This document shows positions 2,437-43,286 of a stretch of DNA of 64,000 nucleotides, piece by piece; within the stretch, counting starts at the first letter, position 1, and each line of letters begins with the position of its first letter. The notes beneath the pieces are model-generated. The model made no database searches and was not told where the DNA came from. It worked only from the letters and a program-made list of their open reading frames with translations. The position numbers were made by a program, and so were the translations under genes. Source of the stretch: Dehalococcoidia bacterium (GTDB lineage: Bacteria; Chloroflexota; Dehalococcoidia; UBA2979); NCBI GenBank assembly GCA_019694855.1, contig JAIBBD010000003.1, positions 33,264-97,263 of the forward strand, in the 5' to 3' direction.

Positions 2437-2438
2437 GG

Positions 2439-3362: not shown

Positions 3363-3438
3363 TGCACGACGGGGCGACACGCTACCAGAGCCGGCGCCCA
3401 CGCGACAGGGGCGGCCTGGTCTGCGCATTTGTACGAAG

Positions 3439-3816
3439 GTGTGGGTGGAGCGCGACGACGGCATCGTCCTGATGAGCGAGTTCCGCGCCGACCTCCTCGA
3501 AGGCGTGGCGGCCGAGGGATCCGTGGCCGCGGCTGCGAGGACGCTCGGCCTCCCGAACCGCACCGCGTGGAAGAAGCTCGAAGAGATGGAACGGGCCGCC
3601 GGTGTGTCGCTCATCGATACGTCTTCCGGCGGAGCCCACGGCGGTGGCACGACGCTCACCGAGGCGGGCCGCGCGCTTGTGGAGGCCTACCGCCGGATCA
3701 GCGACCCGGTCTCGGCCGAGGTACAGGAACGCTTCGAAGCCGAGCGCGCGCTGTTCGAGCGGGAGACGGCGCCCTCCCCGCATCGGACGCCGGATCGCGC
3801 CGACGCGTCATCGTAA
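3439..3816 (+). CDS. ModE-like N-terminal winged-HTH molybdate/tungstate-responsive regulator (no TOBE domains)
   Basis: GSVAAAARTLGLPNRTAWKKLEEMERAAGVSLIDTSSGG matches the ModE N-terminal HTH region. The gene is divergent from tupA with a roughly 77-bp shared intergenic region. The start is uncertain (GTG 3439 or ATG 3472). Confidence 0.55.
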   Translation: MWVERDDGIVLMSEFRADLLEGVAAEGSVAAAARTLGLPNRTAWKKLEEMERAAGVSLIDTSSGGAHGGGTTLTEAGRALVEAYRRISDPVSAEVQERFEAERALFERETAPSPHRTPDRADASS

Positions 3817-3855
3817 GATCGGCTGCGTGCCGCACTCACCAGAGGCCCAGCGACG

Positions 3856-5139
3856 ATGAACGCTCACCTGCGTGACGTGCGCATGCGTGGTTTCGCCGAG
3901 CGCTCCGACGTCGAGGACGTGGAGCGATTCCTCCGCGCGCACACGGCGCCGCTCCCGGCGGAGGCCGTCGCGCTGCTCGATTGCGTCGGTCGCGTGCTCG
4001 CCGAGGACGTCGTTTCGACGGTCAATGTGCCGGGCTTCGTGCGCGCCGCGATGGACGGCTACGCCGTCCGCGGCGAGGACACGTTCGGCGCCAGCGCATA
4101 CGACACGATCGCGCTGCGCGTCCTCGGCCAATCGCTGCCCGGCAACCCGTTCCGAGGTCAGGTCGACGCTGGCGGAGCGGTACGCATCATGACCGGCGCA
4201 CCCCTGCCCGACGGTGCGGACGCGGTGATCATGGCCGAGGTCTGCCGCGAAGCCGGGGGCCTGGTCGAGGTCAGCGAGGCCGTGGCGCCTCGCCGCAACG
4301 TCGACGAGGTCGGCGAGGATGTTGCCCGCGGCCAGTTGCTGCTGCGTACCGGGCGGCGACTTCGCCCCCAGGACGCCGGCCTGCTTGCTTCGATCGGCCG
4401 GGGAGTTCTGACGTGCGTAGCGCGGCCGCGCGTGCAGCTGCTGATCACTGGAAACGAGTTGCTGCCTCCCGGAGCCGCGCCCGAGGGCCCGCACATCGTC
4501 GACAGCAACTCGGTCGTGCTGAGTGCGCTCGTCGCGCGTGATTCTGGGCACTTGCTCCCGGTATGCCGCCTCGCGGACGACCGCGAACGGATCCGGGCCG
4601 CGCTCGCCTCGTCCGAGGCAGACGTCATCCTCGTGTCCGGTGGCAGCTCCGTGGGCATGGAGGACTTCGCGCCGTCGCTGGTCGCGGAGCTCGGCACGCT
4701 CGACGTGCATGGCATCTCGATGCGGCCGTCGAGCCCGACCGGAATCGGCCGGCTCCCCGGCGACGGTGGGCGCGAGCGCCTCGTGTTCCTGCTCCCCGGC
4801 AACCCGGTGAGCTGCATGTGCGCCTACGAGTTTTTCGCCGGCCCCGCGATTCGTGCGCTCGGCGGCCGGCCCTGGAGCTGGCCGCACGCGCGCGTACGCC
4901 TGCCCCTCGCCCGCAAGATCGTCTCGCAGGTAGGCCGCACCGACTACGTTCGCGTGGCGATCGAGGGGGGTCGAGCCGTGCCGCTGGCGACCTCGGGCGC
5001 TTCGATCCTCTCGTCGACCGTCCGTGCGGACGGGGCGGTGATCGTGGAGCGCGGCCTCGAAGGGATGCCGGAGGGGGCGGAGGTCGAGGTGCTGCTGTAC
5101 GACGAGCCGGGCGAAACGCCCGCGTCCCGGGAACGCTGA
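3856..5139 (+). CDS. moeA: Molybdopterin molybdenum/tungsten-transferase MoeA
   Basis: 427-aa protein with full MoeA N, central and C-terminal domain signatures (PGFVRAAMDGYAV, GGSSVGMEDF). Confidence 0.9.
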   Translation: MNAHLRDVRMRGFAERSDVEDVERFLRAHTAPLPAEAVALLDCVGRVLAEDVVSTVNVPGFVRAAMDGYAVRGEDTFGASAYDTIALRVLGQSLPGNPFRGQVDAGGAVRIMTGAPLPDGADAVIMAEVCREAGGLVEVSEAVAPRRNVDEVGEDVARGQLLLRTGRRLRPQDAGLLASIGRGVLTCVARPRVQLLITGNELLPPGAAPEGPHIVDSNSVVLSALVARDSGHLLPVCRLADDRERIRAALASSEADVILVSGGSSVGMEDFAPSLVAELGTLDVHGISMRPSSPTGIGRLPGDGGRERLVFLLPGNPVSCMCAYEFFAGPAIRALGGRPWSWPHARVRLPLARKIVSQVGRTDYVRVAIEGGRAVPLATSGASILSSTVRADGAVIVERGLEGMPEGAEVEVLLYDEPGETPASRER

Positions 5140-7049
5140 TGGTGCAGCAGCAGTTCCTCGAGGTGCTCGACCGCGACGAGGCAGAAGCACGCTGGCACGC
5201 GGTGATCGCGCCCGCGGCCCTCGAACCCGAAGTCGTGCCGCTCGCGGACGCGCTCGGGCGTGTGCTCGCCGAAGACGTGCGCGCCGAGGTGGACGTGCCC
5301 GGGTTCGACCGCTCAAACATGGACGGCTTCGCGGTCCGCGCGCTCGATACGTATGGGGCGATGGAGGAGAAGCCCGTCCGCCTGCGCCTGAACGCCGAGG
5401 TGCTGCCCACCGGCGTCATCCCGGCCGTCGAGGTGGTCGACGGCTCTGCGACGACCATCGCCACCGGCGGCATGTTGCCTCGCGGCGCGGACGCGGTCGT
5501 CCCGGTTGAGCAGACCGACATCGAGGACGGCGGCGCGACGGTCGTCGCGCGCCGCCCGGTCGTGCCCGGGGAGAACATCTCCTTCGCCGGCACGGACATC
5601 GGCGCGGGCGAGACAGTGCTCTTCGCCGGGACGCGCCTCACCTCGAGGGACACGGGCGTCCTCGCCGCGATCGGGGCCGCCGAGGTGGCCGTCGTACGCC
5701 GGCCGCGCGTCGCCGTCATCTCCACCGGCGACGAGGTCGCGCAGCCCGGCGCCCCGATGCGCCCCGGCCTCGTGTTCGACAGCAACGGCCGGATCATCGC
5801 CGACGCCGTACGTGAGCTCGGCGGCGATCCCTGGTTCCTCGGGAGCTACCCGGACGACGAGGACGCCATCCGCGGCGCCGTCGAACGCGCCCTGGCCGAC
5901 GCCGACATGGTGCTGCTCTCAGGCGGGACCTCGAAGGGTGAGGGGGACCTCAACAGCCGCGTCGTCGGTGCGCTGACGCCCGGCATCGTCGTGCACGGGG
6001 TCGCGCTCAAGCCGGGCAAGCCGATCTGCCTCGCGGCGCAAGGCACGACGCCGGTCGTCGTGCTGCCCGGCTTCCCGACCTCGGCGGTGTTTACGTTCCA
6101 CGAGTTCGTCGCGCCCGTCATCCGGCGCATGGCGGGCGAAGGCGAGGCGCACCGCGAGTCGGTCCGCGCCCGTCTGGCGGTGAAGACCAACTCCGAGCGC
6201 GGACGGCTCGAGTACCTCCTCGTGGGCCTCGTCGAGGTGCCCGACGGCGAGCTGGCGGCGTACCCGATGGGGAAGGGCAGCGGCTCGGTCACCTCGTTCA
6301 GCCGCGCGGATGGGTTCATCCGCATCGAACGCAACGTGGAGCTACTCGATGAGGACACCGAGGTCGAGGTCCACTTGATCGGCCGTCAGCTCCCACTGGC
6401 GGACCTCGTCGTGATCGGGAGCCACTGCGTCGGGCTCGACCTCATCGCCAGCGAACTCTCACGCGAGGGCCTGCGCGTGAAGGTGCTCGCCGTGGGCAGC
6501 CAGGGTGGCCTCGCCGCCGCCCGCCGCGGCGAGTGCGACGCCGCTCCCATCCACCTGCTCGACCCGGCTACGGACACGTACAACGAGCCGTTCCTCGACC
6601 CGTCGCTGCGGCTACTCCCCGGCTACCGGCGGATGCAGGGCGTCGTCACGCGCTCCGGCGACGAGCGCGAGGTGACGGCCCTCCTCGACGACCCCGAGGT
6701 ACGCATGGTGAACCGCAATCGCGGCAGCGGGACGCGCATCCTCATCGACCAGCTCCTCGAAGGCCGACGACCTCCCGGGTACGCATACGAGCCACGCTCG
6801 CACTTCGCGGTCGCGGCGGCGGTAGCCCAGGGCCGCGCCGATTGGGGCGTGACAATCGAGACCGTCGCGCGCCAGGCGGGGCTCCGGTTCATCCCGTTGC
6901 GTCCAGAGCACTACGACCTCGCGGTGCCGGCCGGCCGCTGGGATCGGCCCGCCGTGCAGGCCTTGCGGCGCGTGCTCGATCGCCCATCGCTGCGCGCCCG
7001 CCTCGAGGCGATCGGCTTCGCCTCGCCGGACCCGCCCGAGGCGAGCTAA
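5139..7049 (+). CDS. Second MoeA paralog fused to a C-terminal PBP-like (molybdate/tungstate-binding-like) domain
   Basis: Starts at the ATG overlapping the moeA stop (TGATG). The N-terminal roughly 400 aa are MoeA-like (PGFDRSNMDGFAV...SGGTSKGEGD). The C-terminal roughly 230 aa resemble the PBP_like domain found fused to MoeA in archaea and some bacteria. Confidence 0.85.
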   Translation: MVQQQFLEVLDRDEAEARWHAVIAPAALEPEVVPLADALGRVLAEDVRAEVDVPGFDRSNMDGFAVRALDTYGAMEEKPVRLRLNAEVLPTGVIPAVEVVDGSATTIATGGMLPRGADAVVPVEQTDIEDGGATVVARRPVVPGENISFAGTDIGAGETVLFAGTRLTSRDTGVLAAIGAAEVAVVRRPRVAVISTGDEVAQPGAPMRPGLVFDSNGRIIADAVRELGGDPWFLGSYPDDEDAIRGAVERALADADMVLLSGGTSKGEGDLNSRVVGALTPGIVVHGVALKPGKPICLAAQGTTPVVVLPGFPTSAVFTFHEFVAPVIRRMAGEGEAHRESVRARLAVKTNSERGRLEYLLVGLVEVPDGELAAYPMGKGSGSVTSFSRADGFIRIERNVELLDEDTEVEVHLIGRQLPLADLVVIGSHCVGLDLIASELSREGLRVKVLAVGSQGGLAAARRGECDAAPIHLLDPATDTYNEPFLDPSLRLLPGYRRMQGVVTRSGDEREVTALLDDPEVRMVNRNRGSGTRILIDQLLEGRRPPGYAYEPRSHFAVAAAVAQGRADWGVTIETVARQAGLRFIPLRPEHYDLAVPAGRWDRPAVQALRRVLDRPSLRARLEAIGFASPDPPEAS

Positions 7050-7372
7050 CCGCCCGAGAACTGACCAAGCAGCGAGACCGTGTCCCCGGGCGCGAGGCGC
7101 GACCGGAGCGTGTGTGTGTCGCCGATCATCTTGTGGTTGACCAGCACGTGCAGGTTCTCGGTGATCGCGCCGTCGCGCTCCCAGAGCTGGGCGTGCAGCG
7201 CGGGGTGATGCTGACTGAAGCGGCGCAGCAGCGACTCCACGGAGTCGTCCGGCTCGAGGGCCTCACGAAACGCCACGCTGCCCGAGCCCGACCCTCCGAC
7301 CAGCCGGTTCACCCACGTCAGTACCTCGACGGTCACCTCGGAGCCGTCGAGGCGTGACTCGGCATCGCTCAT
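7046..7372 (-). CDS. MoaD/ThiS-like small sulfur-carrier-type protein ending in Gly-Gly
   Basis: 108-aa protein ending in ...LLGQFSGG, a beta-grasp-like length. It lies immediately downstream of the AOR gene, analogous to the MoaD-like AorE of the Aromatoleum aor operon. Confidence 0.7.
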   Translation of the reverse strand: MSDAESRLDGSEVTVEVLTWVNRLVGGSGSGSVAFREALEPDDSVESLLRRFSQHHPALHAQLWERDGAITENLHVLVNHKMIGDTHTLRSRLAPGDTVSLLGQFSGG

Positions 7373-7379
7373 GCGCGCC

Positions 7380-9270
7380 TCAGCCCCAGAGTTCCGCCTT
7401 CACCTCGGGCAGCGCGAGCCGGTCCAGGAGTTCGGGAAGGGGCCGACCGCTCTCGCGGTCGTACTCCACGAGCTCGTACCACGTGTCGAGCATGTGGTCC
7501 CAGTGCGGGGCGGTCGAGACGCCGGCGGCCGGACCGTCGACCGGCGTCGAGCCGTAACGTGCCGAGGGTCGCTCAAGTTCGGGGCCGATGCCGGAGCGAA
7601 GGTTGAAGGCACGCATGAGTGCCGCCGTCCGCCGTCCGAGGTACATCGCGTCGTCCTTGGTGTAGTTCCAGCCCGTCACGGCGCTCACCGCCTCGGCGAT
7701 CGCCGCGATCGTCGTGCTGGTCGTGAAGAAGCACGTCCCGATCGAGTCCTCGAAGTGCCGCCGCCCGAGGGTGAGCGCCACCTGCCGCGGCACGTCGTCC
7801 GGGCTCTGCACCTGCAGCGTCGCGGGCAGTCCGAGCTCCTGCGGGCGCGTCGGGCCCCCGCTCTCCAACGTCCCCGTGCTCGAGACGCACGTGTCGAGCA
7901 TCTCCGGCCACAACGCACGATGGTCGTGCCCGCGCGGGCTCGACCCCTTCATCGTGTACACGGCGCAGTCTTGTGCCGGCCCGCCGAGGTGTTCGGCGGC
8001 GCGCTTGATGCCCTCCGCCAGGACGTCCCCGAAGCCCTGCCGCGTGCAGAGCATCTGCAGCAGCTCGTACGCCGCATCAGCGTCGCCCCAGACGGCCTGG
8101 ATGCCGCCGAGGTCCTGCCTCGTCAGGTACTCCTTCTCGTAGCACTCCATGACCCAGCCGATGACCCAGCCGAATTCGTTCACGTCGACGCCGGCACGGT
8201 CGCACTGGGTGTTCATCCAGGACACCTTGGTGCGGTCGGTGCACCCCCATGCCCAGCCGGCGCCTACCCAGCCCTCGTACTCGGGCTCATCGACCACGTC
8301 ACCGGCATGGACGCCGTCGCGGATCACCTGCATGTGGCAGTGATGCATGCCGCAGGCGTTGCACTGGTGGCCGCGGTGGTCGAAGCCCTCGCGCAGCTCC
8401 ATCGGCTCCCACTTCGACATGTCCGCCTCGGCGGGCAGGATGTTCGTCGTGAGGTTCTTGATCGGCAGGCCGCCCACAGGCGCGAGGCCCGTCACGCCCC
8501 CGAGCGTGCCGATGAGGTAGAAGTTCTGCCCCGGCAGCTCAGTGCGCATCTGGTACGCGATGTCGTCGGCCGTGCGGAACACGCCTCGAGGGTCGGCCAC
8601 GTAGATGCCGCGGTTGCCACGCACGATGGCGACCGCCTTCACGCGCTTCGAGCCCATCACGGCCCCGCAGCCGTTCTTGCTCGCGACGTGGCCGTAGTCG
8701 CCCTGGATCCCCGCGAAGCGGATCAGGTTCTCGCCGGACGGGCCGATGCTGTAGACGGAGAGCTGGTGACCGCTGAGGCCGAGCTCCTCGTACAGGTGGT
8801 CCTGCGTCTCCCACGTGTCGAGGCCGAGGAGATGCGAGGCGTCGCGCAGCTCGGCGGTGCCGTTGTGGATGTACAGGTAGACCCACTGGTCGGAGCGGCC
8901 CTGGAAGACGATGCCGTCGAAGCCCGACGACTTGATGTTCGCCCCGAAGAAGCCGTTCGCCTGCGTGCTGGTCGCGCCGCCGGTAATCGCGCCCTTCGTG
9001 ACGACGCTCAGGCCGCCTGAGCCCCACGTCGGCGTGCCCGCGAGCGGGCCGGTCGCGAGGATGAGACGGTTCTCGGGGTCGTTCCACTGCACATCCGCTC
9101 CGACCTCGTCGTAGAGGATGCGGGCGCCCATGCCGGTGCCACCGACGTAGCTGCGGGCGAACTCGTCGTCGATGGGCTGTTCCCACAGGCGGCCGGTCGT
9201 GAGGTCGACGCGCAGCAGTGCGCCCGCGTACCCGGCCGGCTGATTCCGCTTCTTCTCTGTGACGAGCATT
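7380..9270 (-). CDS. Tungsten-containing aldehyde oxidoreductase, AOR family (AorB-like catalytic subunit)
   Basis: About 630 aa from ATG 9270 (MLVTEKKRNQ...). N-terminal AOR domain (LLRVDLTTG..., GSKRVKAVAIVRG), a Cys-rich FeS/pterin region and the C-terminal AOR domains. The track ORF extends 120 aa further upstream as an Arg-rich artefact. Confidence 0.9.
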
Positions 9271-9304
9271 TGATGTGCCTTTCGCTCGCTGCGCCGTGGG
9301 CGCG

Positions 9305-10684
9305 CTAGACCTCGGTCTGGGCCGCCAGTGCGGCCGCTTCCGGCGACACCCAGCGGGCCGCGTTGACCTCGTCCGCCGGCGTCGAGGGCCGGCCGAGGAC
9401 GGTCTCCTGCAGCAGCCGCCCCACGTGCCCGGTGGCGACGAATGGCCGCTTCAGCTCCCACGGGTTGTCCATCATCGCGCGTTTCCACGCGCCCATCGGC
9501 TGTCCGTCCTGCACCAGCCCCTTGAGGATGCCGACGTCGTTCGTCGCCCACAGGTGTTCGCTGATGCCGATGATGATTGCGCCGGTCATCGCCTCGCCCT
9601 GGCCGTGCCACAGCAACCGCCGGTACGCCCACTGCGAGGGCTTCTCGACAGCCACGCTCTCGGCGTCAGCGTCGTCCCATAGGCCGAAGCTCGCGATCTC
9701 GAGGTCGAGCACGTCGACGATGTTCATGAGCACGGTTCCGCGGTGCGCGCGGTCGACGCCGGCCATGTTCGCGCCCGCGATGCGGCCGTGCTCCATGGCG
9801 GCGGGTTCGATGGCGTGCAGCGCGCGCTGGCCCGTCACCCGGTCGAACGCCTCGGCCACGTCGCCGGCGGCGTACACGTTCGGGGCGCTCGTGCGCATGT
9901 GGTCGTCCACGAGGATGCCGCGCCCCATCTCGAGGCCAGCGCCCTCGAGCCAGCCGAGGTTCGGACGGATGCCCGTCGCCATGATCACGACGTCGGCGCT
10001 CAATTCGCCGCCCCCGTCGAGGACGAGCCGCTTCCGTCCGGCGACCTCCTCGATCGCGTTCAATCGCACGCCGGTTTGGACGGTGACGCCGTGCTGCTCC
10101 AGCCAGCGTGTAACGATCGCGGCGCCGTTGGGGTCGATCATCCGAGGCAGGATCGTCGGTGCGAGCTCAATCACGGTGAGCCGCACGCCGAGCTTCACCA
10201 GCGAATTGAGGATCGTGAACGAGATGAACCCCGCTCCCACCAGTACGACCTCGGAGCCAGCTTTCACCTCCGCGATGAGGCCGTCCGCCTGCTCGAGCGT
10301 CCAGAACGAATGCACGCCCGGCAGGTCGGCGCCCGGCACCGGGGCCCGCACCGCCGATGAGCCAGTCGCGATCAGCAGGTCGTCGTAGTCGACTGTCTCG
10401 CCGTTATCGAGCGTGACGCGCTGCTGCGCCGTGTCGAGGGCCGTCGCGCGCCGCCCGATCTGCGTGGTCACCCCCAGTGCGGCGAGGCGGTCCGGAGACA
10501 GCGTCCATACGTGCGACCTCGAAATGCGCTTGCCGAGGTAGTACGGCAGCACCATGCGCGAGTAGGGGCGCTCCTCGGCGACCAGGACGATGTCGGACGC
10601 GCCCTGGTCGAACTCCCGGATCGAGGTGATCGCGTTGATGGCGGCCGTGCCGCCGCCGACGATGACATGTCGCTTAGCGGCCAT
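9305..10684 (-). CDS. FAD/NAD(P)-binding pyridine-nucleotide-disulfide-family oxidoreductase (AorC-like)
   Basis: Start MAAKRHVIVGGGTAAINA (Rossmann GxGxxA), a second dinucleotide fold VVLVGAGFISF, and the FAD motif AAGDVA. Confidence 0.85.
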   Translation of the reverse strand: MAAKRHVIVGGGTAAINAITSIREFDQGASDIVLVAEERPYSRMVLPYYLGKRISRSHVWTLSPDRLAALGVTTQIGRRATALDTAQQRVTLDNGETVDYDDLLIATGSSAVRAPVPGADLPGVHSFWTLEQADGLIAEVKAGSEVVLVGAGFISFTILNSLVKLGVRLTVIELAPTILPRMIDPNGAAIVTRWLEQHGVTVQTGVRLNAIEEVAGRKRLVLDGGGELSADVVIMATGIRPNLGWLEGAGLEMGRGILVDDHMRTSAPNVYAAGDVAEAFDRVTGQRALHAIEPAAMEHGRIAGANMAGVDRAHRGTVLMNIVDVLDLEIASFGLWDDADAESVAVEKPSQWAYRRLLWHGQGEAMTGAIIIGISEHLWATNDVGILKGLVQDGQPMGAWKRAMMDNPWELKRPFVATGHVGRLLQETVLGRPSTPADEVNAARWVSPEAAALAAQTEV

Positions 10685-11162
10685 TCGTCGCCCCGATCCG
10701 CGCGAGGTCGGCGGCCGACCGTTGCGCCGCGAAGGCGCCCGTCCAGTCCTGCGTGAAGTCCTCGATCCAGGTAATCGCCTGAGTCGGGCAGGCGTGCGCA
10801 CACTGCGGGTCGCCGCCGCACAGGTTGCACTTGAACGCCTTCTCACGTTCGGGGTCGTAGAAGATCGTCCCGTACGGGCACGCGAGGGTGCACAGCTTGC
10901 ACCCTACGCACTGGTCGTCCTGCACTTCCTTCGCTCCGACCGCCGAGATGTCGATCGCCTCGACCGGGCAGGCGGTCATGCACCACCCCTCGGCGCACTG
11001 GAAGCAGGTATAGGGCGAGAAGCTCGTGTGTCCTCGCTCGAACGCGCTCACACGAATCACGGACTTCGAGGGGTTGAATTCACCGCTCTGCACGTAGGAG
11101 CAGGCCACCTCGCAGCGCAGGCAGCCGGTGCATTTCTCCGGCTCGATATGCAGGACTTTCAC
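10674..11162 (-). CDS. Poly-ferredoxin electron-transfer subunit with four [4Fe-4S] motifs (AorA-like)
   Basis: 162-aa protein with four Cys clusters (CTGCLRCEVAC, CFQCAEGWCMTACP, CVGCKLCTLACP, CNLCGGDPQCAHACP). It overlaps the downstream FAD subunit start by 11 nt. Confidence 0.85.
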   Translation of the reverse strand: MKVLHIEPEKCTGCLRCEVACSYVQSGEFNPSKSVIRVSAFERGHTSFSPYTCFQCAEGWCMTACPVEAIDISAVGAKEVQDDQCVGCKLCTLACPYGTIFYDPEREKAFKCNLCGGDPQCAHACPTQAITWIEDFTQDWTGAFAAQRSAADLARIGATNGR

Positions 11163-13333: not shown

Positions 13334-14665
13334 ATGGCATCACATCCGATGACCCCCAACAGCTGGCACCGGAACCGCGAAGGTCTCGGTATCTGGCACG
13401 GCCGCGGCAAGGTCGCCGCGACGGGTGTCGGCACCTCGCCCACCGCCCGCCGCTGGGACGAGAAGCCCGAGACCAGCATGGGCGCCCTCACCCTCATCGC
13501 CATCCGCAAGGCGATCGAGGACGCGGGCATCTCCCCCTCCGAGATCGACGGCATCGTCATCACGCCTGAGTCCACGACCGGCGTCAGCAACGACCCCAAC
13601 ACCCCGCCCCCGGAAGGCTGGGACCAGGTCTTCAAGATGGTCGACTACCCGCAGGCCGGCATCACCCGCGGCGACATCGACTGGATCCTCGTCAACATGC
13701 CTGAACTGACCAACGTGCAGTTCAAGATGGAGGGTCGCGGCTGCATGTCCGTCTCCTTCACCACGGCGGCCGAGGCCGTCGCGCGTGGGCTGACGCACAC
13801 CTGCCTCGTCATCCGCGGCTGGCACAACCTCGCCGGGCGCTACTACGTCGGCCAGGGCGCGGCTGCCGGTGACACCCTCGCCGGCCCGCAGAAGTACGCA
13901 GGCCTCTGGGGCGCCCCGGCGTGCGCTGGCACGGCGATGATCTTCGAGGAGTACTGCAACAAGTACGGCAAGAACCACGACATGATGGCCCCGTTCATCG
14001 TGGAGCAGCGCAAGAACGGCCTCATGAACCCGGACGGGTTCTACAGCCAGCACCGCCCCGAGATGATCACGGTCGAGGACTACCTCTCCGGGCGCTGGAT
14101 CGCCAAGCCGGCCAACATCTACGACAACGACCTCCCGATTCAGGCTGCCCTCGCGGTCATCATGACCACCGCCGAGCGGGCCAAGAACCACCGGCCGAAG
14201 CCGGCCTACGTCCTGACCCACGCCCAGACCCGTCCCGAGAGCCAGGGCGTCACGCCCACCCTCGAGTCGTGGGAGCGGCTCAGCGACAAGATGGGCCGCA
14301 TGCTCTTCGAGGGCGCTGGCATCGGTCCCGATGACCTCGACTTCGAGAACATGTACGACGGCTTCACGCTGTTCCACCAGTTCCACCTGGAGGGCCTGCG
14401 CTTCGGTGCCAACGGCGAAAAGGGCCGTGGCTACGCGCTCGACCTCTACCAGGAGGACATCAGCATCACGGGCCCGAACCCCGTTTCGCCGAGCGGCGGC
14501 AACAACGGCAACGGGCGCACGCGATTCTGGAACCACCGCGACAGCATCCTGCAGGTCCAGGGGCGGTCGCCGTCCCAGATCTCGAAGCCGGCCAACATCG
14601 GCGTCTCGGGCTCGCACATGCCGCACATGTGTGACTCCCTGATCTGGAGCTCCAGCCCCGACTAG
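13334..14665 (+). CDS. Thiolase-like (SCP-x/nonspecific lipid-transfer-type) protein
   Basis: 443-aa thiolase-fold protein. ATG start with an AAAGGA Shine-Dalgarno sequence, located directly downstream of the DUF35 gene (classic pair). Confidence 0.8.
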   Translation: MASHPMTPNSWHRNREGLGIWHGRGKVAATGVGTSPTARRWDEKPETSMGALTLIAIRKAIEDAGISPSEIDGIVITPESTTGVSNDPNTPPPEGWDQVFKMVDYPQAGITRGDIDWILVNMPELTNVQFKMEGRGCMSVSFTTAAEAVARGLTHTCLVIRGWHNLAGRYYVGQGAAAGDTLAGPQKYAGLWGAPACAGTAMIFEEYCNKYGKNHDMMAPFIVEQRKNGLMNPDGFYSQHRPEMITVEDYLSGRWIAKPANIYDNDLPIQAALAVIMTTAERAKNHRPKPAYVLTHAQTRPESQGVTPTLESWERLSDKMGRMLFEGAGIGPDDLDFENMYDGFTLFHQFHLEGLRFGANGEKGRGYALDLYQEDISITGPNPVSPSGGNNGNGRTRFWNHRDSILQVQGRSPSQISKPANIGVSGSHMPHMCDSLIWSSSPD

Positions 14666-15809: not shown

Positions 15810-16025
15810 TCACGAGGCCTCGGCAGCTGCCTTCTTCCGCGCGCGGTACTTCCGCATGTAGTCGCGCATGTAGTCCGTGTACTTCTGAGGGTCGCGCGCC
15901 CGCCGCTCACTCCGGTACAGCGAGTGCGCCGCCCGGCACGGGTCGCAACGACAGCCGTAGTTCGTGTACGCGTTTGACGTGCCGTGTGAAACGAACGAGG
16001 GCAATTCGAGCTTGGGCACAGCCAC
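15810..16025 (-). CDS. Small basic protein with HGT-x3-Y-x3-GCRC-x2-C zinc-ribbon-like motif
   Basis: 71-aa protein: ...SHGTSNAYTNYGCRCDPCRAAHSLY... followed by a Lys/Arg-rich tail. GTG start. Confidence 0.45.
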   Translation of the reverse strand: MAVPKLELPSFVSHGTSNAYTNYGCRCDPCRAAHSLYRSERRARDPQKYTDYMRDYMRKYRARKKAAAEAS

Positions 16026-16157: not shown

Positions 16158-16880
16158 TCATACGACGAGGTCCGCTCGCACGACCAGACGCTGGTCGTAG
16201 GCATGCGCGGCCGCGCTGAACGTGCCAGCGCACGTGATCAGCGTCGCCGTCGCCGAAGTTGTCGGGCCGAGGATCTCCCCGACCGGCGCGGTCGCTTCGT
16301 CGTAGGCCGCGACCCACGCCACGCGATACTCGAACGTCGTGCCGTCGTCGAGCCGCACGAGGAACGTATCGCCTGCGCGCAGCTCGCGCAGCCGGTAGAA
16401 CACCGCCGGCCCGTAGTTCGCGAAGTCCACATGCCCCGCGAGCACGAAGTTCCCGTCCTCGCCCGGCGGCGCCGCGAAGGCATACGACGCCACCTCCAGG
16501 GGCCCCGAAGGAGCGGGCATCGTTCCGTCGGCACGCAGACCCAGCGTCACGATCGGCGCATCCACCCCGATCCGAGGTACCACCAGCCGTCCGCCGCCTC
16601 TGGTGGGCGCCGCGGCGCCCACGGCCGCACTCGCGGCACTCGACGAGATCAGCGGCAGCCCGCTCGGTGTGGCGCTGGCAATCGCCGTTCCAGTCGGGGT
16701 CCCGGTGGCCGCTGCGGCCGTGGCCGCGCCGGCCACCGTCACCAGCTCGGGCGTCGAAACCACCGTCGCCACGGTCGCTGCCCTTTCGTTGCCGTCCTCG
16801 CTGGACGAACCGGACCACGACACGCTCGAGATCACGAGCATGACGAGTGCGGTGACCAGCGCGATTCTCAGGACATGCAC
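16158..16880 (-). CDS. Sortase family transpeptidase (class E/F-like)
   Basis: N-terminal TM segment, LVVPRIGVDAPIV, catalytic His in GHVDF, and catalytic Cys in TLITCAG. It follows the LPNTG protein gene. Confidence 0.8.
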   Translation of the reverse strand: MHVLRIALVTALVMLVISSVSWSGSSSEDGNERAATVATVVSTPELVTVAGAATAAAATGTPTGTAIASATPSGLPLISSSAASAAVGAAAPTRGGGRLVVPRIGVDAPIVTLGLRADGTMPAPSGPLEVASYAFAAPPGEDGNFVLAGHVDFANYGPAVFYRLRELRAGDTFLVRLDDGTTFEYRVAWVAAYDEATAPVGEILGPTTSATATLITCAGTFSAAAHAYDQRLVVRADLVV

Positions 16881-16944
16881 CTGGTGCCCCTCGGTACGAC
16901 GAGGAGTGGAGGAGCACTCACTCCCCCACTCCTTCGTCGATGAC

Positions 16945-19900
16945 CTACGACTTCCGCCGCTTTGACCGCGAGCGCATCACCAGCGTGAGCGCTACGACGA
17001 GCCCGGCGCCTGCGGCGAGCCACGAGATCGGGAGCGTCACGTTACGCTGCGCCCGCTCCTTCGCCACCTCGTAGGCCGACACGATCCGGTCCTGCGGGAC
17101 GTTGATCGAACCCGGGAAGTTCCCTCCACTGCCCGTGTTGGGCAGACGGCTCGGCACCGGCTGCGTCGGCGTGGGTGTCGGAGCCTGCACAGGTGGTGGC
17201 GAGCCCAACACCGTGGTCACGACGACCGGCTGGTACGTAATTGAGTGCGTATCACTCCCTGTCGCCGTCTTCTGATTCGGGTCAGTCACCACCGCCGTGA
17301 ACGTGTTCACGTGCGTCCCGAGGGATACCCCAGCCGGCACCGTGAACGTCGCGTCGAACGTGCAACTCGCCCCGATCGCCAGCACCGTGCCGACCTTGCA
17401 GTCGGCGTCGCCGCTCAGCGTCCCGAACTTGTCGTCGCTCAACGATGTGATCGTGACCGCGATCGGCCCCGTGTTCGTCACGGTGTACGTGTACGTCACA
17501 GGGCCGCCGGTCGCCGGCAGCGTCGTCGTCGCCGAGGTCTTGTCGACCAGGATCGAGGGCTGTGGGTTCGCTACGTAGGTAATTGTGTGCGAGTCCTTGC
17601 CCGTTGCCGTCTGCTGCTTCGGATCGGTCACGACCGCCGTGAACGTGTTCACGTGCGTCCCGAGGGCCGCGCCCGCGGGCACCGTGAACGTCGCGTCGAA
17701 CGCGCAGGACGCACCGACCGCGAGCACCGTGCCGACCTTGCAGTCCGCGTCCCCGACCAACGTGCCGAACTTGTCGTCACTCAGCGAGGTAATCGTCACC
17801 GACACCGGCCCGGTGTTTGTCACGGTGTACGTGAACTTCACAGGACCGCCGCCGACGGGCAGCGTGGTTGTGACCGAGGTCTTGTCCACCCGCACCGAGG
17901 GCTTCGGGTCGGCGAGGTACGTGATCGTGTGTGTGTCGTTGGCCGTCGCGGTCTGCTGGTTCGAGTCCGTCACCACCGCGGTAAAGCGGTTGATGTGCGT
18001 CCCGAGGTCAGCCCCGGCTGGGACTGTGAACGTCGCATCGAAGCTGCACGACGCCCCCACGCCCAGCAGGATCCCGACCTTGCAGTCCGCGTCTCCGGCC
18101 AGCGTCCCGAACTTGTCGTCGACCAGCGATGTGATCGTCACGGGCACCGGGCCCGTGTTCGTCACTGTGTAGGTGAACGTCACTGGCCCGCCGCTCGTCG
18201 GCAGTGTCGTCGTGACCGAGGTCTTGTCGACCCGGATCGCCGGCACCGGCACCTGGATATATGTGATCGTGTGCGAGTCGCTCGCCGTCGCGGTCTGCTG
18301 CTTCGCGTCCGTGACAACCGCCGTGAACGTGTTCACGAAGGTCGCGAGCACGGTCCCGCCCGGCACAGCGAACGTGGCGTCGAACGTGCACGAGGCGCCT
18401 ACGGCCAGCGGCGTCCCGACCTTGCAGTCGGCGTCACCCGCCAGGGCTCCGAACTTGTCATCGTTCAGGCTCGTGATCGTGACCGCGACCGGCCCGGTGT
18501 TCGTCACCGTGAACGTGTAGGTGACGGAACCGCCGCCCGCGGGCAATGTCGTCGTCGCCGACGTCTTGTCGACCCGCACCGAGGGCTTTGCGTCAGCGAT
18601 GTACGTGATCGTGTGATCGTCGCTGTCCGTCGCCGTCTTTCCGTTCGAGTCCTTGACGACGGCCGTGAACGTATTGATGTGCGTCGACAGCGCGCTTCCT
18701 GCGGGGACGTTGAACGTCCCGTCGAAGGTGCAGGAGGCGCCCGGCGCGAGCGCCGTCCCGACCTTGCAGTCAGCGTCTCCCGCCAGCGCCCCGAACTTGT
18801 CATCGTTCAGGCTCTGGATCGTCACCGCGACCGGCCCCGTGTTCGTCACCGTGTACGTAAACGTCACCGACCCGCCGCTCGTCGACAGCGTCGAGGTCGC
18901 CGACGTCTTGTCGACGAGCACGGACGGCTGCGGTTCCGCGATGTACGTGATGGTGTGGTCGTCCGTGTCGCTCGCCGTGTGGTCGGCGTTGTCGTGCACG
19001 ACCGCGGTGAACGTGTTCACGTGCGTCGTCTGTGCGGCGCCTGCCGGCACCGTGAACGCGGCGCTGAAGTCGCACCAGGCCCCGACCGCGAGCAGCGTCC
19101 CGACCTTGCAGTCAGCGTCTCCCGCGAGCGGCCCGAACTTGTCGTCGGTCAGGCTCTGGATGGTCACCGCGACCGGCCCCGTGTTCGTCACCGTGTACGT
19201 AAACGTCACCGACCCGCCGCTCGTCGACAGCGTCGTCGTCGCCGAGGTCTTGTCCACCAGCACCGCCGGCAACGGCGTCGCGAGGTACGTGATCGTGTGG
19301 TCGTCTGTGTCGCTCGCCGTGTGGTCGGCGTTGTCGTGCACGACGGCCGTGAACGTGTTCACGTGCGTCGTCTGCGCCGCGCCCGCCGGCACGGTGAACG
19401 CGGCGTCGAAGCTGCACGAGGCGCCCACCGCAAGTGGAGTGCCGACCTTGCAGTCCCCGTCACCGCTCAGCGTCCCGAACTTGTCATCGCTCAGGCTTTG
19501 GATGGTGACCGCCACTGGCCCTGTGTTCGTCACTGTGTAGGTGAACGTCACAGACCCACCGCTCGTCGGCAGCGTCGTGGTGACCGAGGTCTTGTCCACC
19601 AGCACCGACGGTAGCGGCGTGGCCAGGTAGGTGATCGTGTGGTCGTCCGTGTCGCTCGCCGTGTGGTCGGCGTTGTCGTGCACGATGGCCGTGAACGTGT
19701 TCACGTGCGTCGTCTGCGCGGCACCCGCCGGCACGGTGAACGCGGCGTCGAAGCTGCACGAGGCGCCCACCGCAAGTGGAGTGCCGACCTTGCAGTCCCC
19801 GTCACCGCTCAGCGCCCCGAACTTGTCGTCGCTCAGGCTCTGGATCGTCACGGGCACAGGCCCGGTGTTCGTCACCGCGTAGGTGAACGTCACGAGTCCG

Positions 19901-22566
19901 CCGCTCGTCGGCAGCGTCGTCGTCACCGAGGTCTTGTCGACCAGCACCGACGGTAGCGGCGTGACCAGGTACGTGATCGTGTGGTCGTCCGTGTCGCTCG
20001 CCGTGTGGTCAGCGTTATCGTGGACCACCGCGGTGAACGTGTTGACGTGCGTCGTCTGCGCCGCGCCCGCCGGCACGGTGAACGTCGCGTCGAAGCTGCA
20101 CGAGGCGCCCACCGCGAGCGAGGTGCCGACCTTGCAGTCCCCATCGCCCGCCAGCGTCCCGAACTTGTCATCGCTCAGGCTTTGGATGGTGACCGCCACT
20201 GGCCCTGTGTTCGTCACTGTGTAGGTGAACGTCACGGACCCACCGCTCGTCGGTAGCGTCGTCGTCGTGGATGTCTTGTCCACCAGAACGGCCGGCAACG
20301 GCGTCGCGAGGTACGTGATCGTGTGGTCGTCTGTGTCGCTCGCCGTGTGGTCGGCGTTGTCATGCACGACGGCCGTGAACGTGTTCACGTGTGTCGTCTG
20401 CGCCGCGCCCGCCGGCACGGTGAACGTCGCGTCGAAGCTGCACGAGGCGCCCACCCCGAGCAGCGTGCCGACCTTGCAGTCCCCATCGCCCGTCAGCGTC
20501 CCGAACTTGTCGTCGCCCAGGCTTTGGATGGTGACCGCCACTGGCCCGGTGTTCGTCACCGTGTACGTGAACGTCACCGACCCGCCGCTCGTCGGCAGCG
20601 TCGTTGTGGCGGAGGTCTTGTCCACCACCACCGACGGCTGCGGCGTCTCGAGGTACGTGATCGTGTGGTCGTCCGTCGCGCTGACGTCCTGCTGCGCGCC
20701 ATCGACCGCGTGCGCCGTGAACGTGTTCACGTGCTTCGCGTTTGCCGTCCCGGGAGGCACGGTGAACGTCGCGTCGAACGCACACGAGGAGCCAGCGCCG
20801 AGCAGCGTCCCCACCTTGCAGTCTGAGTCGCCGCTCAGCGTTCCGAACTTGTCGTCGCCCAGGCTCGTGATCGTGACGGCGACCGGGCCCGTATTCGAAA
20901 CCGTGAAAGTGAACGTTGCCTGACCGCCGCTCGCGGGCAACGTGGTCGTTGCCGACGTCTTCTCAACTGCCAGCTTGGGCTTCGCCAGGGTGTTCACGTA
21001 CGTGCAGGTCACGATCGACTCAGACTGGACGGTCACGTCGATCGTCCCCGTTGCGAGGTTCTTGTTCGCAGGTGGACTCCCCACCGGGGTGCCCGTGCAG
21101 GAGAGGTCGATCAGCGAAGCCCCCGACTGCTCGGTCTCGTTGAGCGTCACCACTGCGCTCGAGCCGCTCAGGATGACTTTGAACCCCAGCAGCCCGGCAA
21201 CGTTGGTGCTCCCGGATCCGGGTTGAATCGTCCCCCCCGTGATCTGCGTTGTGAAACCCCAGCCGGAGCCGTCCGTGCGGTCGTTGGTCGTCGCGACGTT
21301 GCCGTCAGCGTCCATCACCTTGTGCACTGTGATCGAGGGAGCACAAAGGTCTAGCAGGATCCCCGCGAGTGTGTCGCCGAGGTTGCCGAAGTCGCCTTCG
21401 TAGTAGGCATCGCTCGGGTTGTTGCTCGAGAGCAACTGCATGTACAGGGGGATCAGGTCGCCACCCACGCCCAGCGAGATGATCCGCGTGCCCGCGCTCT
21501 TCGCGGCATTCGCTGCCTCGATCGCCGGCGTGAGGTGAAGGTTCGGCTGATTCGTCGTCGGAGCATCGTCACTGTTGTGCCGCGTGGGGTTGCCATCGGA
21601 GCTGAACAGGATGAGGTCGTCGCGACCGTCGGCCGAGCCGAACAGCCCCTGCGCCTTGACCAGCGCATCCTGCCAGTTGGTCCAGGCCGTGTTGTTGGGG
21701 GCATACGGGCCCGAGATCACGTTTCCGTTCAGCCCGTTGATGACCGATGTGGCCTGACTCAGATCGCTAGTCAGCGTCTGCCGCACGGCCGCGTAGTTGT
21801 TGAACTCCACGACGCCGACACGTGTGGGCGTGCCCGCGAGCGCAGTCAGCAAACTGGTGAACGCGCTCTTCTGCTGCGCCAGCTCGGTGCTGCTGATGCT
21901 CGCCGACGTGTCGATCACGATCACGAGGTCGAAGCCGCACGTATTGCCCAGCGCCGGGTTGGCTACGATCGGCGCATACGTGATCGTGGCCGTGATTGTA
22001 CCGATGCGCACGCCGTTGTTGTTTGAGCTGTCCTTGACCACGCCGATCTCGAGGCTGCTCACAGCCGACTTCAGCGTGGGTTCCAGAACGATGTGCTGCG
22101 TCTTCGTATTGCAGCCGCCCGAGCTCCCCGACGCGCTCAGATCGCTCTCACCGTCGGTGTCCGCCCCGTTAAGCCGGACGAAGGTTCGGTACGTGCCGCC
22201 CGAGTTCGTGTCGCCGCGATCACCGACGGTGATCGTGACCCCCGTAATGACTGCGCCCGCAGGTACCGAAGCGGTCGGCAGCGTGAACGACTCGCGCTGG
22301 TTCGAGCTGCTGCTGCTGATGTAGTTGCTGTTCGCCGAGCCGTCACATGACGACCCGAGGTTCACATTGCTGAACCCGCCCGACCACGCCGTGTAGGTCC
22401 CTTGCCCGGTCGGCTGGACTCCACTCGTCTCAGCGGCATGCGCGTTGTGCTGGCGATTCCATTGAATGCCGCCAAGGAGCGCCGCACCCGCGATCAGCGC
22501 GAGCGCGATGAACATCCAGGGCTGCCCGATCTCACGGACGTTACTGCGAAACCCGAACCTGGCCAT
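16945..22566 (-). CDS. Giant (1873 aa) cell-surface protein: signal/TM, vWA domain, about 11 tandem DUF11-like repeats, LPNTG sorting motif
   Basis: N-terminal hydrophobic segment. vWA motif DLVIVIDTSASISS...VGVVEFNNYAAV. 114-aa repeats (KTSxTTTLPxSGGxVTFTYTVTNTGPVAVTIxSLxDDKFGxLxGDxDCKVG...). C-terminal SRLPNTG, a hydrophobic segment and a KRRKS tail. Confidence 0.9.
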   Translation of the reverse strand: MARFGFRSNVREIGQPWMFIALALIAGAALLGGIQWNRQHNAHAAETSGVQPTGQGTYTAWSGGFSNVNLGSSCDGSANSNYISSSSSNQRESFTLPTASVPAGAVITGVTITVGDRGDTNSGGTYRTFVRLNGADTDGESDLSASGSSGGCNTKTQHIVLEPTLKSAVSSLEIGVVKDSSNNNGVRIGTITATITYAPIVANPALGNTCGFDLVIVIDTSASISSTELAQQKSAFTSLLTALAGTPTRVGVVEFNNYAAVRQTLTSDLSQATSVINGLNGNVISGPYAPNNTAWTNWQDALVKAQGLFGSADGRDDLILFSSDGNPTRHNSDDAPTTNQPNLHLTPAIEAANAAKSAGTRIISLGVGGDLIPLYMQLLSSNNPSDAYYEGDFGNLGDTLAGILLDLCAPSITVHKVMDADGNVATTNDRTDGSGWGFTTQITGGTIQPGSGSTNVAGLLGFKVILSGSSAVVTLNETEQSGASLIDLSCTGTPVGSPPANKNLATGTIDVTVQSESIVTCTYVNTLAKPKLAVEKTSATTTLPASGGQATFTFTVSNTGPVAVTITSLGDDKFGTLSGDSDCKVGTLLGAGSSCAFDATFTVPPGTANAKHVNTFTAHAVDGAQQDVSATDDHTITYLETPQPSVVVDKTSATTTLPTSGGSVTFTYTVTNTGPVAVTIQSLGDDKFGTLTGDGDCKVGTLLGVGASCSFDATFTVPAGAAQTTHVNTFTAVVHDNADHTASDTDDHTITYLATPLPAVLVDKTSTTTTLPTSGGSVTFTYTVTNTGPVAVTIQSLSDDKFGTLAGDGDCKVGTSLAVGASCSFDATFTVPAGAAQTTHVNTFTAVVHDNADHTASDTDDHTITYLVTPLPSVLVDKTSVTTTLPTSGGLVTFTYAVTNTGPVPVTIQSLSDDKFGALSGDGDCKVGTPLAVGASCSFDAAFTVPAGAAQTTHVNTFTAIVHDNADHTASDTDDHTITYLATPLPSVLVDKTSVTTTLPTSGGSVTFTYTVTNTGPVAVTIQSLSDDKFGTLSGDGDCKVGTPLAVGASCSFDAAFTVPAGAAQTTHVNTFTAVVHDNADHTASDTDDHTITYLATPLPAVLVDKTSATTTLSTSGGSVTFTYTVTNTGPVAVTIQSLTDDKFGPLAGDADCKVGTLLAVGAWCDFSAAFTVPAGAAQTTHVNTFTAVVHDNADHTASDTDDHTITYIAEPQPSVLVDKTSATSTLSTSGGSVTFTYTVTNTGPVAVTIQSLNDDKFGALAGDADCKVGTALAPGASCTFDGTFNVPAGSALSTHINTFTAVVKDSNGKTATDSDDHTITYIADAKPSVRVDKTSATTTLPAGGGSVTYTFTVTNTGPVAVTITSLNDDKFGALAGDADCKVGTPLAVGASCTFDATFAVPGGTVLATFVNTFTAVVTDAKQQTATASDSHTITYIQVPVPAIRVDKTSVTTTLPTSGGPVTFTYTVTNTGPVPVTITSLVDDKFGTLAGDADCKVGILLGVGASCSFDATFTVPAGADLGTHINRFTAVVTDSNQQTATANDTHTITYLADPKPSVRVDKTSVTTTLPVGGGPVKFTYTVTNTGPVSVTITSLSDDKFGTLVGDADCKVGTVLAVGASCAFDATFTVPAGAALGTHVNTFTAVVTDPKQQTATGKDSHTITYVANPQPSILVDKTSATTTLPATGGPVTYTYTVTNTGPIAVTITSLSDDKFGTLSGDADCKVGTVLAIGASCTFDATFTVPAGVSLGTHVNTFTAVVTDPNQKTATGSDTHSITYQPVVVTTVLGSPPPVQAPTPTPTQPVPSRLPNTGSGGNFPGSINVPQDRIVSAYEVAKERAQRNVTLPISWLAAGAGLVVALTLVMRSRSKRRKS
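17190..20890 (-). repeat. About 11 tandem coding repeats, period 342 bp, inside the giant surface-protein gene; the central about 5 copies (about 18600-20600) are nearly identical at the DNA level
   Basis: Six-frame ORF fragments recur at an exact 342-bp spacing (for example starts 19639, 19981, 20323). The protein motif VHDNADHTASDTDDHTITYL(A/V)TPLP occurs 5 times. Confidence 0.85.
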
Positions 22567-22803
22567 CCGAATACCTCACGTCTGGCGCGCGACCGCTCGA
22601 AGCCGAGCAACGGTCGCGGCGCGCTGAACAACGAGGCGCGGTCAACAGAAGGCGCTGTGAGTCGCGAGGCGCATTCGTCGACGAGGCATCGACGACCGGA
22701 GGCGAGTTGTCCGTAGGCGCGCTGACTGAGGGGCGATCAGTCAGAAGGACGGTCGAGGGGCGCTATCTGCACTGTGGAGGTCCGTCCGTCGGTCGTCCAC
22801 AGC

Positions 22804-22832
22804 CCAAGGTCACAGGCGTTCGTGACCTTTGG
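22804..22832. promoter_or_regulatory. 10-bp inverted repeat CCAAGGTCAC-N8-GTGACCTT(T)GG in the long 5' region of the giant surface-protein gene
   Basis: Near-perfect palindrome seen directly. It lies about 240 bp upstream of the 22566 start codon and about 220 bp upstream of the divergent crotonase gene. Confidence 0.35.
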
Positions 22833-23051
22833 GAAACGCGGGCAATGCACTGCTGGACCGGCTGGGCTTTCCGCAGGATACGAGGCGCAGCGTGGTGAGG
22901 CAGAGCGGATGATAAATGACATTGGGCGCATAAGACAATAGCCCGCTACCCTCAGCGCCCTTTTCCGCCTGCGGAGGGTTCACAGGCCGCGCCTACAACG
23001 GGTATGGTGCACGCGACGAACCTCGAGGCTAGTACAGGAAGGCGGGCCAGC

Positions 23052-43125: not shown

Positions 43126-43286
43126 TCCGCTCGTCTCCTTTCGCCGCGGCACGCGAGCGGCCGCGTCCTCTGTCGCCTGTGCGAGAGCCGTGCGATCCTG
43201 CTGTCGCCCCCACGATCGCCATCGCCGCCGTGCACGCACGAGGCCCGCACCGTCCGCGACCAGCTCCCTACCGGAGGCACCCATCG

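Follow-up and report, generated by a model that had tools for sequence, protein, structure and literature searches.

Fibrillar adhesins in which a signal peptide, an adhesive head, a stalk of tandem Ig-like domains and a C-terminal sorting signal follow one another are the closest described relatives of the protein that is the subject of this report, and the CLIPPER and CLIPPER_2 families (current Pfam names of DUF11, PF01345, and of DUF7507, PF24346) have been described as the CnaA-like stalk domains of such adhesins (Costa et al., Protein Sci 2025, PMC12617251). Both families are predicted to form an intramolecular isopeptide bond between Lys and Asn, with an Asp as catalyst, and for CLIPPER a crystal structure (PDB 9IFR) shows it. 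Lys72 of a domain starting at residue 65 is reported as the isopeptide lysine of DUF7507, and disulfides often accompany the isopeptide bond, being found in 42.7% of the Chloroflexota isopeptide domains (Costa et al. 2025, PMC12617251). Here we describe a two-gene unit of this kind on the minus strand of a stretch of 64,000 nucleotides (the window; contig JAIBBD010000003.1 of assembly GCA_019694855.1) from a Dehalococcoidia bacterium, with a G+C content of about 68-70%. The unit consists of an adhesin gene at 16945..22566(-) and a sortase gene at 16158..16880(-), and it is flanked by metabolic genes on the plus strand. We consider it quite probable that it encodes a wall-anchored fibrillar (stalked) adhesin together with a dedicated class F-like sortase, in an uncultured, high-GC lineage of Dehalococcoidia-class Chloroflexota.

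Compared with the described CLIPPER and CLIPPER_2 adhesins, the window protein has the same PF24346 repeats with the same Lys, Asp and Asn positions and a conserved Cys pair, the isopeptide bonds being in our case predicted from sequence. The solved CLIPPER domain belongs to an Acinetobacter adhesin and to the sister family PF01345, whereas the repeats of the window belong to PF24346, and the window protein adds a sorting signal of class F type with a long spacer. In the VWA tip adhesins SpaC (6m3y), RrgA, GBS104 and Mfa5, a VWA domain with a metal-ion-dependent adhesion site (MIDAS), CnaB-type domains and an LPXTG signal are combined in a similar way. The canonical tripartite sorting signal (the type of S. 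aureus protein A, described by the models PF00746 and TIGR01167) has the same order of LPXTG motif, hydrophobic stretch and basic tail. In contrast to the few residues that separate motif and hydrophobic stretch there, 36-61 residues with a charged, helix-prone insert are found here, and the models stay below threshold.

All components are thus of described kinds (CLIPPER_2-stalk adhesins, VWA tip adhesins, class F sortases and tripartite signals), the protein has already been deposited as a 'VWA domain-containing protein', and current understanding is not overturned; what is unusual is the long-spacer sorting signal. What is known of sortases comes almost entirely from Firmicutes and Actinobacteria, and the locus, a clean and conserved pair of one enzyme and one substrate in an uncultured member of the Chloroflexota, would be a convenient model for class F specificity.

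Domain organisation of the adhesin

An adhesin-like reading frame of 1873 aa had been proposed in the original prediction, and the translation of 16945..22566(-) bears this out. The G+C content at third codon positions (GC3) is 0.89, high as in the real genes of the window, and the protein is identical to NCBI entry MBX7110487.1, 'VWA domain-containing protein [Dehalococcoidia bacterium]', from a Dehalococcoidia metagenome-assembled genome (MAG). From the N-terminus, a putative signal peptide is followed by an unannotated beta domain, the VWA domain, a CnaB-like domain and 11 repeats, after which come the LPNTG motif, a spacer of 36 aa, a hydrophobic segment and the KRRKS tail. This gene and domain anatomy is a direct observation, as are the motif conservation, the adjacency of the two genes in five genomes and the allele replacement described below.

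The putative signal sequence, read from the translation (residues 1-44; 22435..22566(-)), has a basic start and a hydrophobic core and ends in AHA, followed by AE. The next domain (about residues 45-205; 21952..22434(-)) was modelled by AlphaFold as all-beta, with strands at confidence scores (pLDDT) of 42-84, and it is kept in a subset of the head homologues, many of which align from the first residue of the query. No Pfam family matched the first ~155 residues of the head.

The VWA domain (residues 213-398; 21373..21930(-)) matches Pfam VWA at 2.6e-11, and also VWA_2. It has a complete MIDAS motif (D219-x-S221-x-S223, T296 and D324), and all of these residues are invariant in the 12-sequence head alignment A4, which holds the window head and 11 homologues and in which column number + 43 gives the protein numbering. 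A profile of the domain found mussel PTMP1 (3.8e-32), the fimbrial tip protein Mfa5 and integrin I domains in the PDB. Foldseek with the head model gave target-normalised TM-scores of 0.7-0.77 to VWA and I domains, which confirms the VWA fold, and the sequence and fold matches of the head also include TRAP/MIC2 and the pilus tip adhesin SpaC (6m3y).

The CnaB/SpaA-like beta-sandwich that follows (residues 409-530; 20977..21342(-)) is all-beta in the AlphaFold model, at pLDDT 80-93. It found no Pfam match when searched alone, and the allele of a near-identical strain (L001, see below) carries SpaA_4 at the matching position. A CnaB-type isopeptide signature is formed by K416, E477 and N525, which are invariant in A4 (columns K373/E434/N482). 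Taken as a whole, the modelled head (pLDDT 77.6) begins with an all-beta part, continues with the alpha/beta VWA part and ends in the beta-sandwich.

An exhaustive library search with the head (residues 44-533) gave 1240 relatives, the identical protein among them, 182 of these below 1e-30 and many of them long (up to 3869 aa). Word-indexed protein searches with the head and with the tail had given no match, and in the light of the exhaustive search these negatives reflect low sensitivity and not orphan status. Display of the VWA domain at the tip had been proposed. A VWA-bearing head on a repeat stalk is indeed present, but the VWA domain is not the outermost one, since the ~155-aa beta domain of no Pfam family lies N-terminal to it; by this extra domain the window adhesin also differs from the VWA tip adhesins of pili.

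The stalk (residues 534-1787; 17206..20967(-)) consists at the protein level of exactly 11 CLIPPER_2 (DUF7507) units of 114 aa (342 nt) each, in perfect register and without indels, in agreement with the about 11 tandem 114-aa repeats that had been noticed before. At the DNA level, Tandem Repeats Finder (TRF) recognised one array only, at 17287..20961, with a period of 342 bp, 10.7 copies and 81% matches. The repeats had been called DUF11-like, with DUF11 and CARDB named as the families to compare; both do match (1.3e-22 and 4e-9), as do other Ig-like families, but the best family is DUF7507/CLIPPER_2, at 5e-74 and with 245 bits (cut-off 27) over 11 stretches. K3, D38, N81, C50 and C62 are invariant in the array and present in 46 of 46 repeats from four loci. 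K3 corresponds to profile position 8, which is the same offset as that of the reference Lys72 in a domain spanning residues 65-169. In the AlphaFold model of one repeat (pLDDT 81), an Ig-like beta-sandwich, K3, D38 and N81 lie in strands or at their ends. Two cross-links probably lock each repeat, an isopeptide bond between Lys3 and Asn81, with Asp38 as catalyst, and a disulfide between Cys50 and Cys62. Foldseek matched the repeat model to generic Ig-like folds only (TRAP-beta, PapD), and neither a single repeat nor the repeat profile found anything among PDB sequences except a chance match to GcvH (E 0.023).

The sortase and the adhesin-sortase pair

The start codon of the sortase gene lies 64 nt after the adhesin stop codon. 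The 240-aa product has an N-terminal membrane anchor, a tether of ~75 aa rich in Ala, Thr and Ser, and a catalytic domain with H150, C217 and R231. It matches Pfam Sortase (PF04203) with 85.7 bits, and in 25 sortase relatives H150 and C217 are invariant and R231 is nearly so. Among the NCBIfam class models, F is best by far (117.4 bits, with 38.6 for E, 31.9 for D and 24.5 for C), at a score below the NF033748 cut-off of 166 bits, and a 99%-identical protein from a Dehalococcoidia MAG has been named 'class F sortase' by NCBI. The original prediction of an adjacent, dedicated sortase is borne out, and of its class assignment, E/F-like, the F part stands (117 bits) and the E part does not (39 bits).

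The class F sortase of Cutibacterium (Propionibacterium) acnes (Di Girolamo et al. 2019, as cited in PMC8225981 and PMC13251363) resembles the window enzyme, for which class F scores best, in the His-Cys-Arg triad and an LPXTG-type substrate motif. In contrast to that enzyme, the window sortase scores below the class cut-off, comes from a Chloroflexota and not an Actinomycetota host, has the ~75-aa tether and adjoins a single large substrate instead of having a housekeeping role. In recent papers the physiological roles of class F sortases are still described as unknown.

Species-representative genomes were scanned with a profile made from an 11-sequence sortase alignment, which yielded 198 sortase relatives; the best 80 were kept as loci, and nearly all of these are from Chloroflexota MAGs. 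The adhesin and the sortase are adjacent in five genomes (the window, L001, L003/L083, L004 and L085) despite differing flanks. Three of these, L003/L083, L004 and L085, contain clear orthologues with 12 repeats instead of 11, with the sortase directly downstream and with different neighbouring genes. Between L003 and L004 on the one hand and the window on the other, the heads are 78-80% and the sortases 51-73% identical in amino acids. A conserved chromosomal context was considered and rejected, as the window flanks are not common to L003 or L004. With the same head, the sortase kept downstream and the flanks exchanged, the adhesin-sortase pair appears as a conserved module.

The combination of a VWA domain with CnaB-like domains is typical of the tip adhesins of sortase-dependent pili, and with SpaC among the fold matches it may be asked whether the protein is a pilus subunit or a tip adhesin polymerised by sortase, as RrgA, SpaC and GBS104 are. 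The adhesin has neither a YPK nor a PKN pilin motif, however, and no gene for a shaft or base pilin is found nearby; there is one sortase only, and no other sortase substrate is encoded in the 64-kb window. The class C sortase model, moreover, scores 24.5 bits against a cut-off of 160. The built-in stalk of 11 domains, which places the shaft in the same polypeptide, makes a pilus shaft unnecessary, and we regard the pilus interpretation as extremely improbable.

The sorting signal and its long spacer

After a Pro/Thr-rich linker (residues 1788-1807; 17146..17205(-)), seen in the translation and in alignment A5, the adhesin continues with the LPNTG sortase motif (residues 1808-1812; 17131..17145(-)) and a 36-aa spacer (17023..17130(-)), which has a charged, helix-prone middle and a conserved NVTLP(I/V)S end. 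The very C-terminus is formed by the 16-aa hydrophobic segment WLAAGAGLVVALTLVM and the basic tail RSRSKRRKS (16948..17022(-)). The orthologues have LPATG as their motif and a longer spacer, of 61 aa. R-L-P-x-T-G-x-G-G and the juxtamembrane NVTLP(I/V)SWLAAG are invariant, and between orthologues the middle of the spacer, charged and helix-prone, has diverged in sequence and differs by a 25-aa indel.

A gap of roughly 40 residues between LPNTG and the membrane segment, longer than in canonical signals, had been pointed out at the outset. The finding holds: 36 residues in the window and 61 in the orthologues compare with 1-21 in about 50 related substrates. In substrates adjoining related Chloroflexota sortases an xPxTG motif lies 9-21 aa from the hydrophobic segment, and in head homologues with recognisable xPxTG anchors the spacer is 1-11 aa; the first motif position varies widely among Chloroflexota substrates (L, M, V, P, G or F). 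Scans of metagenomes for the tail, by peptide patterns and by the degenerate pattern NVTLPISWLAAG, gave no match, and nothing useful was found in the literature on long LPXTG spacers or on Dehalococcoidia sortases. The long spacer is thus real, conserved in the orthologous group and rare.

The length of the spacer raises the question whether the motif is processed at all. If LPNTG were too far from the membrane, the adhesin would be tethered by its transmembrane helix and the sortase would serve other substrates. Such a membrane-anchored adhesin would account for a spacer of 36-61 aa that is far outside the 1-21 aa of the related substrates, and for the failure of the hidden Markov models of anchors on this signal. 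It would not account for RLPxTGxGG being invariant while the sortases are only 51-73% identical and the adjoining spacer has diverged and changed in length. The sortase gene, too, is immediately downstream in all five genomes in spite of their differing flanks, and the window offers the enzyme no other substrate. A long sortase tether, furthermore, could reach the motif. For sorting, Schneewind and colleagues reportedly found that the motif and the charged tail must be at least a certain distance apart, not at most, and no upper limit is known; a long spacer that functions is compatible with this. On balance we think it unlikely that the helix is the final anchor.

We therefore return to the wall-anchored adhesin with its own sortase, for which the following course of events can be proposed. 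The N-terminal signal sequence would direct the adhesin to Sec export, and the C-terminal hydrophobic segment with its basic tail would keep it in the membrane. The membrane-tethered neighbouring sortase would then cut between Thr and Gly of LPNTG and join the adhesin to a cell-wall acceptor. In the mature rod, the tip would be made up of the unannotated beta domain and the metal-dependent MIDAS VWA domain, the latter binding a ligand, followed by the CnaB-like domain and a shaft of 11 CLIPPER_2 domains. The motif, at 36 residues (61 in the orthologues) from the membrane segment, would be reached by the catalytic domain on its equally long tether of ~75-80 aa. From the anatomy of the locus we infer export, cleavage, wall attachment, the isopeptide and disulfide bonds, a ligand and the role of the spacer.

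A relation between the two lengths is suggested by 17-27 Chloroflexota neighbour pairs, in which sortase tether length (34-110 aa) and substrate spacer length (9-61 aa) are correlated with a Spearman coefficient of 0.77-0.87, or 0.77 after removal of the orthologous group of the adhesin. Kinship was ignored in these values, and as the pairs are phylogenetically non-independent, the correlation is a lead and not a result. It suggests that the motif must sit at a height that the enzyme can reach, and this natural series of spacers and tethers bears on the question of how far from the membrane a sortase can act.

Several observations weigh against the interpretation that we prefer. Dehalococcoides proper is not known to have peptidoglycan, which makes the wall acceptor in this lineage putative; the sole local hint of peptidoglycan in the lineage is a LysM protein near one orthologue. 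Pfam Gram_pos_anchor (PF00746) aligns with nothing but the hydrophobic part and, at 12.8 bits, stays below its cut-off of 20, and none of the NCBIfam LPXTG models (e.g. TIGR01167) matches at E<=0.01; it is because of the spacing that the signal misses the curated anchor models. To the subthreshold class F score is added that the sortase has no close solved structure, the nearest PDB sequences being remote (E 3e-6). The Lys-Asp-Asn triad of the repeats was assigned from sequence alone, and 9IFR is absent among the Foldseek matches of the repeat model. One locus with a tether of 79 aa has a spacer of just 17 aa, which goes against a strict matching of the two lengths. The head-swapped allele described in the next section rests on a single MAG contig, each of the two alleles being represented by one contig.

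It is tempting to speculate further that the long spacer defines a distinct sub-type of sorting signal and that the repeats serve mainly as a portable homology arm for the exchange of heads. In such a signal the spacer, with its helix-prone middle and conserved NVTLP(I/V)SW end, would act as a ruler whose length fits class F sortases on long tethers. If this were true, the repeat arm would let different heads recombine onto one chassis of stalk, anchor and sortase within a population. This combined proposal seems doubtful to us. The 65-residue peptide that cleavage would leave in the membrane might also have a role of its own, by analogy with the C-pep of streptococcal adhesins, for which Hall and colleagues have reportedly found one.

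Repeat evolution and replacement of the head

The claim that about five central copies of the repeat are almost identical in nucleotides was overstated. Copies 2-5 are 87-93% identical to each other, copy 6 is 83-86% identical to copies 2-5, and all other pairs are 68-81% identical; the longest exact runs between central copies are 63-91 nt. Runs of this length are enough for homologous recombination, as judged by minimal pairing lengths. The central units of the window are closer to each other (83-93%) than to any orthologue unit (at most 79%), which points to lineage-specific duplication or to gene conversion with homogenisation, and the units of L003 and L004 correspond one-to-one. As a substrate for expansion and contraction the array is thus supported historically, by 11 versus 12 units and by its homogenised centre. 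In the window and in L001, the sole near-identical genome available, the copy number is the same (11), and the one change seen between these strains is the head swap described below.

In repeat adhesins such as SasG/Aap, Bap and the alpha C protein, near-perfect repeats are variable in length, and serine-rich repeat adhesins have exchangeable binding regions. The window adhesin resembles these proteins in a stalk of DNA repeats, in repeat duplication or conversion and in different heads on the same stalk and anchor. In contrast to SasG/Aap, Bap and alpha C, its repeats are 68-93% identical, so that slippage should be much rarer, and no difference in copy number is seen between the two close strains.

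L001 (contig JAXLWX010000009.1, GCA_046328275.1) is collinear with the window and typically 0-2% different on both sides of the adhesin. The adhesin of L001 is MFN8585645.1, of 1751 aa; it too has 11 units, ends in the same tail and is accompanied by a sortase 99% identical to that of the window. A segment of 2.2 kb (20626..22868(-)), which in the window comprises the 5' leader, the putative signal peptide, the whole head and repeat 1, is replaced in L001 by 1.9 kb of unrelated sequence. The upstream junction lies between 22869 and 22868 in unique intergenic DNA, and the downstream junction lies at the boundary of repeats 1 and 2. The L001 segment encodes another signal peptide, a head with Asp-rich calcium-site-like motifs and SpaA_4, a Pro/Thr linker and a divergent first repeat. 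On the far side of the swap, repeats 7-11, tail and sortase are about 99.9% identical between the two genomes, and repeats 2-6 differ by 6.5% in a patchy manner, a pattern compatible with gene conversion between units or with a recombination tract ending within a similar stalk.

As the two alleles read, the strain variation is a head swap and not a change in copy number, and the swap looks as if it had used the repeat array as one homology arm. The repeats, diverged and yet recombinogenic, would then have been duplicated and homogenised within the lineage and would also have provided the downstream arm for the replacement of the head in a sister strain. Such a replacement on a constant stalk between strains that are ~99% identical bears on the question of how environmental bacteria change their binding specificity.

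Other explanations of the swap were considered. Inversion of the head by an invertase, as in phase switching, was rejected because no meaningful inverted repeats flank the head, and a silent donor of the L001 head was rejected because neither the window nor the 80 related loci yielded such a copy. An exact look-up of the window adhesin among encoding contigs gave no match.

Both sequences are MAG contigs, and the repeat number, the mosaic central repeats and the head swap could in principle be artefacts of short-read assembly, a reading favoured by central repeats with exact runs of up to 91 nt, by patchy differences between the assemblies within repeats 2-6 and by an L001 allele found on one contig. 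Collapse or expansion of the array in assembly had indeed been named as a possible refutation. Two independent MAG assemblies (MBX7110487.1 and MFN8585645.1), however, both have 11 units in perfect register and in an open frame, with units 7-11 about 100% identical, and the shared runs of at most 91 nt should, as we infer, be shorter than the usual read and k-mer lengths. The upstream junction, being in unique DNA, is followed by an intact frame of 1751 aa with a putative signal peptide of its own and SpaA_4, and three further genomes contain full-length orthologues. From the independent assemblies, the intact frames and the one unique junction we judge assembly error to be very unlikely.

The head in L001, at L001:4681-5913, carries two Asp-rich DxNGDG calcium-site-like motifs, SpaA_4 and a long Pro/Thr linker; no relative of it was found in the 80 loci, and NCBI annotates it only as a hypothetical protein. 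A further difference between the two genomes, which are otherwise 98-100% identical, is found at 13626-14625, inside a thiolase-like gene, where 1 kb holds 45 mismatches, making this the second patch of sequence in the population that was acquired by import or recombination.

Regulatory elements and neighbouring genes

A putative sigma-70-like promoter, TTGTCT-18-TATCAT, is found upstream of the adhesin gene at 22909..22938(-) by consensus match only (2 sites found, 0.5 expected). It lies ~40 nt upstream of the point at which the alleles diverge, within the stretch common to the window and L001. An 18-bp GC-rich hairpin (16898..16938(-); minimum free energy -42.8 kcal/mol, z -5.0) lies between the adhesin stop and the sortase start. 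Equally strong hairpins of other sequence occupy the same intercistronic place in orthologous loci (L083:9904-9935 and L085:9917-9965). No U-tract follows the hairpin in the window, L083 or L085, and that of the window was not called by the terminator scan. The hairpin may be an intercistronic attenuator or an mRNA-stabilising element, and by reducing read-through from the adhesin gene into that of the sortase it may keep the enzyme scarce and its substrate plentiful. Rfam and tRNA searches of the window found no RNA genes.

Just downstream of the sortase gene, at 15810-16025(-), there is a very basic reading frame of 71 aa with a GCRCDPCR motif; it is among the called genes of L001 and L002 and matches no Pfam family. 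A DsbA-like thioredoxin is encoded at 42337-43284(-) (Thioredoxin_4 2e-35, DSBA); it is possibly an extracytoplasmic disulfide oxidoreductase, which would be relevant to the two invariant Cys of each stalk repeat. A 932-aa STAND-type ATPase (AAA_22, AAA_16, NB-ARC and TPR) is found at 34322-37120(+), with GC3 or second-position G+C outside the coding filter. At 710-9632, genes for an ABC transporter with a PBP_like_2 binding protein are found together with two MoeA genes, one of them fused to a PBP-like domain, and an aldehyde:ferredoxin oxidoreductase, a cluster that looks like a tungstate/molybdate uptake and cofactor system for a tungsten enzyme. The genes that follow (9305-11162) encode a ferredoxin and a pyridine-nucleotide disulfide oxidoreductase.

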